Below, piece after piece: positions 11,026 through 14,769 of a stretch of DNA of 64,000 nucleotides. The position numbers and the translations under genes were made by a program. Below the pieces are notes generated by a model. That model worked only from the letters and a program-made list of their open reading frames with translations. It was not told the DNA's origin and did not search any database. Numbering within the stretch: the first letter of the stretch is position 1; each line of letters begins with the position of its first letter. The stretch comes from Candidatus Pacearchaeota archaeon (lineage in GTDB: Archaea; Nanobdellota; Nanobdellia; Pacearchaeales; GW2011-AR1), in assembly GCA_027021195.1 (NCBI GenBank), contig JALUUW010000003.1, forward strand, positions 4,843 through 68,842, given 5' to 3'.

Positions 11026-14000
11026 TTAAATTGATTCCGGCCTTAATATAATTGCACAGCCAGGATTTGTATTTCCTCCAAGATCTTCGCATTTGATGTA
11101 ATGCCTCTTTCCAGACTCCCACTCGCTGGTATGGGTTCTTGAAAATACATCTGTCATAGGCTTTGCATCCTCTCCTCGAATGTCAAATCCGCATCCATTA
11201 AAACTGTAATAGCATTTTGCATCTTCGTCTGTTATTACCTTTAACTCTCCCTCGCTGTAAGCCCTTACTATTTTTGGAGCTTCAGTGTCAAGCTCTAAAG
11301 TGAATACTGCATTTCCATAAGCAGTATTTCCTGCATCGTCTTCGCACTTTACATAAATATTGTAGTCTCCTTTCATCATAGTGTTGAAGTTCTGCTTATG
11401 CCTCCTGGAGAAGCTCTCAAAAAACAGAGTCATGTCATCATATCCTGAGAAACTGTAATAACAGGAAGACTTTCCATTCCTCGCCCCTCCGGAAGTCTCA
11501 ACTTCAAGGTCTACTGAGATTGGCTCGAACCATCTCTTGATTTTTCCCTGAGGGGTTATTGAGGTTATGTTAAGATTTGTCTCTGAAACATAGAGTGTAT
11601 AAACAAAATCCTCTTCATTTACATTTCTTGAAGTGTTCTCTGGAGGAAGCCATGGCTGGTCTTTGCACCTGATGTAAAAATTGTTTTCTCCTTCTGCAAG
11701 CCCTTTAAGAGTGGTGCTGCACTGCCATCCCAACAGCTCCCTCTCTGTTATTCCTGTTTTGCAATCCATTGAATTGCTCATTTCCTCATAGCTTTTTCCG
11801 CTTTCAGTGCTGTACCTGCATTCAGCAGGCTCACTTAGGTAAATCTGAAGAGGCGTTTCTGTAACATTATATTTCAGGAAACTTTCATCCTCTGGAACTG
11901 CAACTGTTCTTGAATGGTCTACAGCAGTTGTGTCTGGCCCTGAGTTAATGCAGAAATTCACCGTATACTCGTCAATATTGTAGTTTCCATGATAGTCCTT
12001 GCACTTAACATACATATTCATGTTTCCAAACATCTCTCTTATGTCTCCTGCAACATCATAGACGCTTAAGCTGTCCAGGCTTGGCATTGAAAATGAAAAA
12101 GTGTGGTTGAGAGTGAATGCATTTTGCTCAACAGGGTATCCTCTCATTTCGTCATATTCTGTTTTCTGGAAATCAAACTTGCACTGCGCAAATTCATCTG
12201 TTTTTAGGCTGAAGCTGACAGGAGTGAATTCAGGGATGCAGTTTCCGTTTTCCCTTCTTATCTCAACTCTTTTTGCATCTTCGTTATTGAACTTGTAGCC
12301 CTCGTCAATATCTCCTGCAGAAATTACAGGAGGATTGCTTTCATAAGGGATGCTCTCGCAGACAGGGTTTTCTGTTTCTTCATTAAGGATTCTGCATGCC
12401 TGCCCAAGGCTCTCGCATCTGTATCTTGTGCAAGGCATTCCTTTTTCAGCAAGCTCGTTGCATCTTTTGCAATTCTCTCCTCCTGCAGGAGCCTGCCATG
12501 GCATGCATGTAAACTCAACAACCCTTTCTTTTGTCTTTCCCCATCCAACAACTATGACATATACCATTATTATTACTGCTGCTGCCAGTGCGTATGTTCC
12601 AAAATTCAATCCCCATTTGAGCCATCCGACCTTCATTAGGCCAAGTATTCCTCCTGCAACCCCTCCTGCTACTGTCAGGACTGTTGCTGCATTTCCAGAC
12701 CTTCCCAAAGACTGGGCAATAAATGCTCCTGCAACTGTTCCTATTGCAAACCCTGCTGCTGCCCATGCGAATGCTCCTATGGATGTATATGTGGTAGAAA
12801 CAACTGCTTCAGATCCTGCAAAAATTGTCTTTGTTCCCAATAATGATGTTGTTGTTTCATAAGCTCCATAAGTGTAGGTGGTAGTTCCTATTCCCAAATG
12901 GCTAATGGCCATAATCAAGGTTCCAGCTCCTCCTGAAACTTCTCCAAGCTGCTTTATTACAGCCTGTATTTTATCCTCTTTAGGCTTTTTGCCAGAATTA
13001 CCGCTTATTGAAGAGATGTAATCATCAATTTCCTGGGGCTTTACATACTGGCCTTCTACAGGATCTGCATAATCCTTATATCTTTCCCATGAAACACTTG
13101 GAGACCGCGTTACTTTAATGTTATCGCTTCCCTCTCCAATATAATTGATATAGCTTCCGCAATCTCCGAGGCTGATGCAAAGGTCATTCATCTGCTCTGC
13201 AAAAACTCCTTTCTCGCAATTGCAGTTCTCAATGCACTCCCACTTTCCTCTTGAGTTTTTTTGGTATATGACAGTGCATTTTTGATTTGCCATTGCGCAT
13301 ATGCTGTCTGCAATAGAGCTTTCCCTTTGCCTGAACCCTCTTGGATATCTTCCAACGCAGACATCAAAGCTGAACCCGTCATCAATATTAATGTTTTTAA
13401 TCATGCAGTGCTTGTTTTTATTGCATTTTTCAGCCATGTTTCCCTGTGAATTGTAATCAAGGCACTTTGTAGCTTCGTTCACAACGCATGAGGCTACTGA
13501 AAAGCTTTTTCCGTTTTCCTCTATTTCTGATTCTGTGCAAAGCCCCCCTCTATAGTCACTGCATCCCTCTGTCTTTACTTCTCCATCAATACATATTTTT
13601 CTCCAGTGCCTGCTTCCTGCAGGATCTTTCCCTTCTCCTATATAAGAGTCATAAGCACACCAGCTCTCCCCGTTCTTTCTCTCTTTTCCGCCTGTCTCAG
13701 GAGATGCAGGGCAGTTTTTGTTTTTGCATATATAATCTCCGTCTTTTGCTTTTTTTCCTCCTGCCTCGTCTGAAGGCGCGCACATGCTTCCAAGGAAATA
13801 ATTGCAGTTTCCGCACTCTTCTGACTGAATATTGTCTGAATCAGGGTTGCAGCTTTCCTGTTTGCTTAACACCTTTCCGTTATTCCACGAAAAATCCCTG
13901 TCTGAGGAATAGATGTTTTCCCTGTTTCCGCAGGAATCAATCCAGTAAATCTCGTCTTTTCCCTCAATGCAGCTTATGCTTGCCTGCCTTTCACATTCAA

Positions 14001-14769
14001 CCCCCATTTCTTTAAATTCCGGATTTGAACATAGATGGTCTTTGTAAAAGTCTCCCTGAATGCTGAGGCATCTTGATTCTGTTGTAAATTCGCATCTGCC
14101 TCCTTCAAGGATGCATGCCCCTTCAAACTGGCTTGCAGAAAGAGCAAGGCATTCAAATTCTGTTTCAAGGTCTCTAAAGTCTTTTTTAAACCCGTAAAAA
14201 GATGAAAGTTTTTCACACCTTTTTTCTGTAACAAACTGCGCATTATCTCCCAAAACACAGCATCCTTTCTGGCATTCGCTTACTAAACATGATTCTTCAT
14301 TTTTCCATATTCCTCCTCCAGACTCGCATTTTTTTCTGGTGGATTTTGTTGTGCATAGCCCCTCATCTTCGTCAATGCAGCATCCTATCTTGCAGTCAGC
14401 AACTTCATCGCATTTTGTCGGAAGAGGATTGTCGCAGCTTTCAGTATCAAAAAACCCGACATCCTGGCATATTGCTCCGCTTTTTGTAACAGGGCAGCAT
14501 TTCCATGACTCTTCTTCTGCAGAAACAATTCCTATCTGTTTTATTGATAAAAATCCCACTAAGAGGCTTGCTCCTGCAGCAATGAGATTCCCAAGACTGT
14601 CTTTTCCTTTATCTCTTTTTATTATAATGGAGCTGCTGTCAGGCTGGCTGCTCATTCCTATAACATAGCTGGTTGCAGGACTCATATTAACCAGAAGGAA
14701 AATCTGGAACATAACAACAGCTAGCAAGCTTAGTTCTGTTTTTCTTTCCCTGATTTTTATTGACTTCAT
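11026..14769 (-). CDS. 1247-aa Cys-rich surface protein: ectodomain + Gly-rich TM bundle + four C-terminal repeats
   Basis: Signal/anchor-like N-terminus. A Cys-rich region is homologous to 8690..10177. A Gly/Ala-rich hydrophobic block lies at nt ~12540-12950. There are four repeats ending Y[VI][KR]C[KE]D..GN. Confidence 0.8.
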   Translation of the reverse strand: MKSIKIRERKTELSLLAVVMFQIFLLVNMSPATSYVIGMSSQPDSSSIIIKRDKGKDSLGNLIAAGASLLVGFLSIKQIGIVSAEEESWKCCPVTKSGAICQDVGFFDTESCDNPLPTKCDEVADCKIGCCIDEDEGLCTTKSTRKKCESGGGIWKNEESCLVSECQKGCCVLGDNAQFVTEKRCEKLSSFYGFKKDFRDLETEFECLALSASQFEGACILEGGRCEFTTESRCLSIQGDFYKDHLCSNPEFKEMGVECERQASISCIEGKDEIYWIDSCGNRENIYSSDRDFSWNNGKVLSKQESCNPDSDNIQSEECGNCNYFLGSMCAPSDEAGGKKAKDGDYICKNKNCPASPETGGKERKNGESWCAYDSYIGEGKDPAGSRHWRKICIDGEVKTEGCSDYRGGLCTESEIEENGKSFSVASCVVNEATKCLDYNSQGNMAEKCNKNKHCMIKNINIDDGFSFDVCVGRYPRGFRQRESSIADSICAMANQKCTVIYQKNSRGKWECIENCNCEKGVFAEQMNDLCISLGDCGSYINYIGEGSDNIKVTRSPSVSWERYKDYADPVEGQYVKPQEIDDYISSISGNSGKKPKEDKIQAVIKQLGEVSGGAGTLIMAISHLGIGTTTYTYGAYETTTSLLGTKTIFAGSEAVVSTTYTSIGAFAWAAAGFAIGTVAGAFIAQSLGRSGNAATVLTVAGGVAGGILGLMKVGWLKWGLNFGTYALAAAVIIMVYVIVVGWGKTKERVVEFTCMPWQAPAGGENCKRCNELAEKGMPCTRYRCESLGQACRILNEETENPVCESIPYESNPPVISAGDIDEGYKFNNEDAKRVEIRRENGNCIPEFTPVSFSLKTDEFAQCKFDFQKTEYDEMRGYPVEQNAFTLNHTFSFSMPSLDSLSVYDVAGDIREMFGNMNMYVKCKDYHGNYNIDEYTVNFCINSGPDTTAVDHSRTVAVPEDESFLKYNVTETPLQIYLSEPAECRYSTESGKSYEEMSNSMDCKTGITERELLGWQCSTTLKGLAEGENNFYIRCKDQPWLPPENTSRNVNEEDFVYTLYVSETNLNITSITPQGKIKRWFEPISVDLEVETSGGARNGKSSCYYSFSGYDDMTLFFESFSRRHKQNFNTMMKGDYNIYVKCEDDAGNTAYGNAVFTLELDTEAPKIVRAYSEGELKVITDEDAKCYYSFNGCGFDIRGEDAKPMTDVFSRTHTSEWESGKRHYIKCEDLGGNTNPGCAIILRPESI
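11601..11632. repeat. 32-nt exact repeat (partner 6584..6615)
   Basis: Lies inside the 1247-aa gene, where it encodes SRNVNEEDFV on the minus strand. Confidence 0.9.

Follow-up and report, generated by a model that had tools for sequence, protein, structure and literature searches.

The 64,000-nucleotide (nt) stretch of Candidatus Pacearchaeota archaeon DNA analysed here (contig JALUUW010000003.1, positions 4,843 to 68,842; referred to as the window) encodes on its (-) strand a 1247-amino acid (aa) protein (11026..14769) with two large soluble parts on either side of a hydrophobic block. Sequence comparisons support the placement of both parts outside the cell, where they would be disulfide-bonded, and support a role of the block as membrane anchor. 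The protein, which is identical to P0001, is the fused ‘NC’ form of its family. In our judgement there is about an even chance that it is a lineage-specific cell-envelope or attachment scaffold, working with pilin-like partners in a Pacearchaeota/Woesearchaeota-type DPANN archaeon.

The protein begins with a hydrophobic helix (aa 13-31, 14677..14733; all features of the protein are on the (-) strand), a signal peptide or anchor whose motif QIxLLxN...AxSYxIxQ is kept across homologues. This is followed by a Cys-rich N-ectodomain of 475 aa with 45 conserved Cys (aa 86-560, 13090..14514), a poorly conserved acidic linker (aa 561-606, 12952..13089), a nearly charge-free Gly/Ala/Thr-rich hydrophobic block of 138 aa (aa 607-744, 12538..12951), a second Cys-rich segment (aa 745-811, 12337..12537) and four immunoglobulin (Ig)-like repeats. 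The second Cys-rich segment, which contains FTCMPWQAPAGGENCKRCN...CTRYRCESLGQAC at aa 753-792, is the best-conserved part of the protein and its seven Cys (aa 755-804) are invariant in 117 homologues; all 66 Cys of the protein are invariant or kept in at least 90% of family members.

The original prediction had described this order of Cys-rich ectodomain, multi-pass glycine-zipper block, second Cys-rich segment and four repeats, and every sequence feature that it quoted was found in its place, including the ~140-residue block at nt ~12540-12950, the second Cys-rich segment and the region in common with a 495-aa paralogue. That paralogue (8690..10177, (-)) consists of a signal anchor and the N-ectodomain only, and it aligns with residues 50-545 of the 1247-aa protein at 37% identity (BLAST, E 1e-88).

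Sixty homologues went into an AlphaFold2 model of residues 48-1247 (mean pLDDT 78.7, pTM 0.60), which contains a confidently predicted N-domain (86-560) of mixed α/β structure, a stretch of low confidence at residues ~590-665, and a compact 7-Cys segment (aa 745-811) followed by four β-sandwich domains. No structural or sequence relative of the N-domain was found, its structure having been compared with the PDB as part of the whole model. A division of residues 88-212 into three tandem 6-Cys modules was considered and found unsupported (hhalign probability at most 22%). The density of N-glycosylation sequons (N-domain 0.35 and repeats 1.22 per 100 aa) does not discriminate.

The pattern of Cys loss in alignments of 149 N-domains and 126 C-modules bears directly on the location of the two soluble parts. 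In both halves Cys disappear in pairs and never singly, which is a signature of disulfides. Among the N-domains, C130-C161 were jointly lost 64 times, all in N-only paralogues, C91-C120 20 times, C139-C166 8 times, C170-C207 3 times, and C101-C126 and C259-C280 once each, whilst C267-C330 were lost 5 times, in fused and N-only proteins alike. The pairs jointly lost from the C-modules are C844-C940 and C1193-C1238.

Two paralogues provide independent views of the same question. P0117 (archaeon GW2011_AR13, L003 8001-11840) keeps the signal peptide, N-domain and C-module, and its multi-pass block is replaced by a non-hydrophobic stretch that peaks at only 1.17 in a 19-residue Kyte-Doolittle hydropathy window; as this protein has no membrane segment between its halves, both must share a compartment. 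A 712-aa split C-module paralogue has its own signal anchor, and alignment of a C-only protein with residues 751-1244 of the 1247-aa protein gives 34% identity (E 1e-77). In C-only proteins generally, a Pro-rich linker follows the N-terminal anchor, and two hydrophobic segments most often come next. Counting of hydropathy peaks gives four in the block of 27 of 43 fused proteins and one plus two in 17 of 30 split proteins. The inferences of the original prediction that both soluble parts are extracellular and that the number of membrane passes in the block is even are thus upheld by these comparisons, and a four-pass anchor is the simplest count that we infer for the block.

P0117 also has an Asn-rich low-complexity insert in its N-domain and a fifth Ig-like repeat at its C-terminus. 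Five repeats are likewise present in L003_1279 and L003_1336, repeat number being variable in some paralogues, and the GW2011_AR13 genome holds three modules that each pair a partner with a Cys-rich protein.

Within the block (residues 607-744), Gly, Ala, Thr and Ser make up 52% of residues (29% in the whole protein) and only 7 of 138 residues are charged, compared to 25% protein-wide. AlphaFold2 predicts three transmembrane (TM) helices of 21-27 residues (661-687, 692-713 and 721-741), and a variable Thr/Ser/Gly stretch separates these from a weaker segment at 607-629. The three peptides singled out originally lie at aa 666-685, 697-711 and 726-744. Zippers of the type [GAS]xxx[GAS]xxx[GAS] recur (GFAIGTVAG, GTVAGAFIA and GGVAGGILG), and the turn between the paired helices TM1 and TM2 has a fixed length of 5-6 residues. 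Like the Glycine zipper 2TM family (PF05433), the block has repeated small-xxx-small motifs in adjoining, paired hydrophobic helices with a short turn, but it differs in having three to four helices and in belonging to an archaeal membrane protein; the match to the family itself stays below threshold (12.1 bits against a cut-off of 24.2, E 0.19).

The block is also the least conserved part of the protein. The frequency of the top residue is 0.39-0.42 in the block and 0.14 in the variable Thr/Ser stretch, compared to 0.56-0.66 in the N-domain, Cys segment and repeats, and only composition and the short TM1-TM2 turn are kept across homologues. Being least conserved and dispensable in a paralogue, the block fits an anchor rather than a pore or fusion core. 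PDB structure searches with the model matched no pore or fusogen fold, and the three-domain β-rich fold of class II fusogens and fusexins (HAP2, EFF-1, archaeal Fsx1) was not recognised. The alternative put forward originally, of a pore- or fusion-like insertion element, is not supported.

The C-terminal part of the protein is best described as the 7-Cys segment followed by four Ig-like β-sandwich domains, an assignment supported by profile comparison and by the predicted model. Repeat 1 spans aa 812-942 (11944..12336; QCKFD ... YVKCKDYHGNYN), repeat 2 aa 943-1062 (11584..11943; ECRYS ... YIRCKDQPWLPPEN), repeat 3 aa 1063-1162 (11284..11583; SCYYS ... YVKCEDDAGNTAYGN) and repeat 4 aa 1163-1247 (11029..11283; KCYYS ... 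YIKCEDLGGNTNPG), with the starting motifs at residues 862, 983, 1102 and 1185 and the closing motifs at aa 920-931, 1032-1045, 1139-1153 and 1224-1237. A BLAST comparison of the C-terminal part with itself gave no matches, so that the repeats are invisible to this method, whilst profiles of the four repeats, sliced from 117 homologues, match one another with hhalign probabilities of 78-98% (E 2e-5 to 3e-12). The four repeats thus start and end where they had been noted and are mutually homologous. In the AlphaFold2 model they have an Ig-like β-sandwich fold, and Foldseek against the PDB aligns ~450 columns with tandem Ig, fibronectin type III (FN3) and cadherin ectodomains, with E down to 7e-13.

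It had also been asked whether the repeats belong to a known Ig- or cadherin-like Pfam family. Repeat 3 of the window protein bears matches to Big_13 (17.5 bits, gathering threshold 27) and Y_Y_Y (14.6 bits, gathering threshold 26.6) that stay below threshold. Across 35 members, weak matches recur on repeats 3 and 4 to Big_13 (14/35), Y_Y_Y (8/35), DUF4625 (6/35) and Big_3_3 (3/35), with a best E of 1e-4, and repeats 1 and 2 match none of these four families. The repeats have a D..GN strand motif in common with Big_13 (PF19077), Y_Y_Y (PF07495), Big_3_3 and DUF4625.

The searches support the view that this is a large, lineage-restricted and unannotated family. A homology search returned 619 proteins at E ≤0.001, none with a Pfam domain on record, which come from metagenome-assembled genomes of Nanoarchaeota, Pacearchaeota or ‘archaeon’ and are named ‘hypothetical protein’, apart from one that is called, evidently wrongly, a ‘GRP family sugar transporter’. 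A species-level scan, with one genome per species, found at least 563 loci with the family, and the best 80 of these are in metagenome-assembled genomes labelled Pacearchaeota, Woesearchaeota, Nanoarchaeota or ‘archaeon’, plus one Aenigmatarchaeota. The C-terminal half (596-1247) matches 2104 clusters at 50% identity, 1191 of them at E ≤1e-30, which fall into two length classes of ~1200-1350 aa and ~670-870 aa. Orthologues are 33-58% identical, with evenly and highly conserved ectodomains in which no hypervariable tip was seen.

No match to the 1247-aa protein above a curated threshold was found in Pfam or NCBIfam, and PDB sequence profiles gave nothing below E 0.3 for the protein or its partner. 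The family is not covered by a survey of archaeal type IV filament (TFF) systems (bioRxiv 10.64898/2026.04.22.720090). In the window, PCNA and a single-chain PriS+PriL primase are markers that fit a DPANN archaeon.

The evidence for a partnership comes from the organisation of the locus, which proved more informative than any other result. Upstream of the 1247-aa gene lies a gene for a 276-aa partner (14771..15601, (-)), whose N-terminal helix (KRSQVTIFII) is like a class III (prepilin-type) signal and leads into an α/β domain with 6 Cys. A 262-aa paralogous partner (10179..10967, (-); RKGQVTIFII), 35% identical to the first, precedes the 495-aa gene in the same way, and the stop of each partner gene lies 1 nt before the next ATG. 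Identical TATA-like sequences, ATTTATAA, were read at 15624..15631 (-) and 10990..10997 (-), each 23-30 nt upstream of the ATG of the respective partner gene. The 1-nt spacers and the identical boxes suggest two similar archaeal promoters that would drive two bicistronic, nearly leaderless units.

A gene-order comparison of 79 related loci extends this arrangement well beyond the window. The conserved order is PCNA, a ~260-aa partner, the fused protein, a second ~260-aa partner and an N-only protein, followed by a C-only protein (or a second fused protein) and four small genes of ~164, 323, 174 and 162 aa; a small winged helix-turn-helix (wHTH) gene then lies on the other strand, and an S-layer-like gene is present in several genomes. 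On the far side of PCNA, genes for a 443-aa protein, a 621-aa Cys-rich protein and primase lie on the opposite strand. In most relatives the second copy of the system is split into N-only (~520 aa) and C-only (~700-900 aa) proteins. PCNA lies within 3 kb upstream in 37 of 55 loci and the second module within 3 kb downstream in 55 of 58; a second C-module is present in 40 of 45 (32 split, 8 fused), and at least three of the four small genes in 20 of 45. A partner immediately precedes 74 of the 80 fused genes and 62 of the 64 N-only genes, and the gap between partner and fused gene is at most 5 nt in 60 of 74 cases, which supports genetic coupling of the 1247-aa protein to a partner with a prepilin-like N-terminus, as judged from gene order.

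The link of the partners and small proteins to pilins is at present a lead, based on their N-termini. Partners begin with [KR][GAS]QVTIFII, and the pattern [KRDE][GA][ALIFQMVED][ILMVTAS]x3 followed by a hydrophobic helix, of the FlaFind type, fits 56 of 77 and 60 of 74 partners (about 75-80%). Of the two window partners, the 262-aa protein (KGQVTI) matches this pattern and the 276-aa protein (RSQVTI) does not. The four small families, which in L001 lie at 16184-18652, follow the second module in fixed order, contain 2-8 Cys and have no Pfam family; FlaFind-type matches number 0-2 among them, and in every family [KR][GAS]Q is followed by a short polar stretch and then a hydrophobic helix. No curated pilin or class III signal model in Pfam or NCBIfam matched the partners or the small proteins at E ≤1.

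In several relatives the S-layer-like gene is found shortly after the end of the locus (L053 19241-21676, L069 21366-23525, L001 19328 onward). It encodes a Thr/Ser/Asp-rich sequence with a weak S_layer_C match on record, and has no homologue in the window. The flanks of related loci also contain genes of ~500 and ~270 aa, which were considered as pilus machinery and rejected, being read from their sequences (no family search was run) as lysyl-tRNA synthetase, Holliday-junction resolvase, acylphosphatase and unrelated proteins.

In the scaffold that we favour, the N-domain would sit on the outer face of the membrane, and the Cys segment and four Ig-like domains would form an outward stalk of ~15 nm, a length that uses the general size of Ig-like domains. 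The 1247-aa protein would be co-produced with the pilin-like partner whose gene ends 1 nt upstream, and the second paralogous module, plus the four small pilin-like proteins in most relatives, would join it in a conserved surface assembly. This assembly may be a scaffold that ties the membrane to a type-IV-filament-like or S-layer-associated structure and serves envelope architecture and attachment. Its binding partners would mainly be conserved components of the cell's own envelope rather than variable host ligands, which is favoured by the even conservation of the ectodomains over hundreds of species and by the position of the locus among housekeeping genes.

Several observations weigh against this scaffold. 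Neither the window, where ten other ORFs (open reading frames) were scanned, nor the two flanks inspected yielded a pilus ATPase, platform protein or prepilin peptidase. Of the genes present in relatives, the split C gene, all four small genes and the S-layer-like gene are missing from the window. The topology is deduced from hydropathy and from comparisons between homologues: just three TM helices are confident in the AlphaFold2 model, the first segment of the block (607-629, motif LGTISGGxG) is moderately hydrophobic with low model confidence, and the conserved GWGKTK after the last helix would lie outside the cell. The positive-inside rule is uninformative because the loops are nearly charge-free. 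A literature search found no paper that describes the family or the function of any member.

Of the other explanations, the most probable, though we think it unlikely, is that the protein is a host-cell adhesin, in which the distal Ig-like domains or the N-domain bind a host ligand and the protein gives an ectosymbiont its primary means of attachment. Most cultured DPANN archaea are ectosymbionts, according to two papers (PMC11329633, PMC11104419), cell-adhesion ectodomains (PTP-delta, NCAM2, MAG and cadherins) give the best structural matches, and the variable repeat number of some paralogues (five in L003_1279 and L003_1336) would suit such a role. However, over at least 563 species-level genomes the ectodomains show strong and even conservation and no variable tip, the genes keep a fixed order beside replication genes, and Pfam-type scans detected no lectin or known binding domain; the even conservation and fixed gene order suit a housekeeping assembly better than a host-specific ligand binder. 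A more elaborate proposal, which we regard as doubtful, takes the entire 8-9-gene locus (two pilin-like partners, two Cys-rich/Ig-stalk modules and four small pilin-like proteins) as a hitherto unrecognised envelope machine specific to Pace-/Woesearchaeota-type Nanoarchaeota. Here the two modules would span the envelope, and their zipper blocks would oligomerise as a conduit at the point of host contact, so that the locus would make a device, primed by pilins, for attachment or ‘feeding’.

A membrane channel or fusion device, in which the glycine-zipper helices of several copies form a pore or enter the host membrane and so make the cytoplasmic bridge that has been proposed between DPANN archaea and their hosts, could draw on the GxxxG-type zippers, the weak Glycine zipper 2TM match and the two paralogous modules per genome, which could give hetero-oligomers; glycine zippers do occur in some channel-forming proteins. 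The low conservation of the block, its loss in a paralogue and the outcome of the PDB searches make this quite improbable. An odd number of passes would place the Cys segment and repeats in the cytoplasm, with metal-binding cysteines. This would agree with the three confident helices, with the Lys-rich GWGKTK after the last of them and with the spacing C767-x2-C770 ... C780-x4-C785, which is like that of a zinc ribbon. It is nevertheless hard to reconcile with the paired Cys losses in the C-module, with the TM-less P0117, which joins the C-module directly to a secreted N-domain, with the N-terminal signal anchor of split C proteins and with the weak matches of the repeats to bacterial Ig-like domain families, which are typically found in surface proteins, and we consider it very improbable. 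Least credible of all is the view that the protein is a glycoprotein of a virus or mobile element that has integrated in the genome. Pfam matches of neighbouring genes to viral envelope families are at chance level only (E 0.004-0.05), whereas 2.9 million viral contigs and PHROG hold no relatives of the family, and its chromosomal position beside PCNA and primase is fixed in divergent genomes.

Other genes of the window include several of envelope type. A 621-aa protein (18199-20064, (+)) has 31 Cys, a signal-like helix at its N-terminus, a TM helix at its C-terminus and a tail rich in Arg and Pro, and adjoins primase in most related loci; it was considered as a relative of the 1247-aa protein and rejected, having no sequence relation to it, and its sole Pfam match, to squalene-hopene cyclase, is at chance level. 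Beside it in related loci is the 443-aa protein (20444-21775, (+)), with a signal peptide, a hydrophobic C-terminal end and no matching Pfam family, and with these two proteins several envelope-type genes flank PCNA and primase. The primase is a 537-aa protein (16589-18202, (+)) with matches to small- and large-subunit domains plus zinc-ribbon-like matches, a PriS-PriL fusion that we take to be typical of DPANN archaea. A 248-aa secreted protein (22302-23048, (-)) has a sub-threshold match to the lamin-tail domain (28.8 bits, cut-off 34.3).

At the end of the locus and divergent from it, a double winged-helix Lrp/AsnC-type regulator (7625-8668, (+)) stands in place of the small wHTH (HVO_A0114-like) gene of related loci. 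Window positions 1-8000 have a G+C content of 0.29-0.33, compared to 0.35-0.43 elsewhere in the window, and contain a radical SAM/SPASM gene (5109-6170), an ORF with a CxxxCxxC motif (550-1716) and methyltransferase-like ORFs; this region could represent a cluster for peptide maturation.

Pacearchaeota and Woesearchaeota rank with the most widespread DPANN archaea; to our knowledge neither has a cultured member, and we know of nothing on how they build their envelopes or make contact with other cells. A conserved, surface-exposed and disulfide-locked complex would be a target for metaproteomics and cryo-electron tomography of enrichments, and for antibodies or labelling akin to fluorescence in situ hybridisation with which hosts could be found. 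The 475-aa Cys-rich domain, having no detectable relative, is a target for structural study. The disulfide pattern would also mean that these organisms, although mostly anaerobic, rely on extensive disulfide bonding outside the cell.

We know of no described counterpart to three features, namely the Cys-rich N-domain, the double ectodomain around a central glycine-zipper anchor and the conserved locus. In kind the protein would most resemble Ig-stalk surface proteins. The tandem Ig/FN3 cell-adhesion ectodomains (PTP-delta Ig1-Fn1, 4y61_A; NCAM2, 2xy1_A; MAG, 5lfr_A; titin) are close in fold, and bacterial Ig-like domains (9kvu_A) are among the closest matches, with sequence identities of 5-13% throughout. 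In contrast to the cell-adhesion proteins, the repeats here follow a multi-pass block instead of preceding a single C-terminal TM helix, and the motifs xC[KRY][FY][DS] and Y[VI][KR]C[KE]D..GN are specific to this family.

A looser likeness may be drawn to the SlaB-type S-layer stalk proteins of Sulfolobales, which are membrane-anchored and whose β-sandwich domains span the space under the S-layer. The resemblance would lie in a membrane-anchored β-sandwich protein and in the S-layer-like gene that adjoins the locus in several relatives. The present protein differs in lacking a coiled coil and a single C-terminal TM helix and in having a Cys-rich domain of 475 aa in addition; sequence and fold comparisons gave no match, no test aimed at SlaB having been made, and the 1247-aa protein matched no S-layer family such as S_layer_C.

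The PilY1 and minor-pilin tip complex of bacterial type IV pili offers a comparison of similar looseness, as does the PilY-like adhesin of archaeal TFF subsystem 4A/4B (bioRxiv 10.64898/2026.04.22.720090). Secondary structure and fold matches give four Ig-like sandwiches in place of the C-terminal β-propeller of PilY1, the protein has its own multi-pass anchor, and genes for ATPase, platform and peptidase were not found in the locus. Its partners are pilin-like by their N-termini, and thus putative pilins only. What the systems would have in common is a large non-pilin surface protein encoded together with small prepilin-like proteins.

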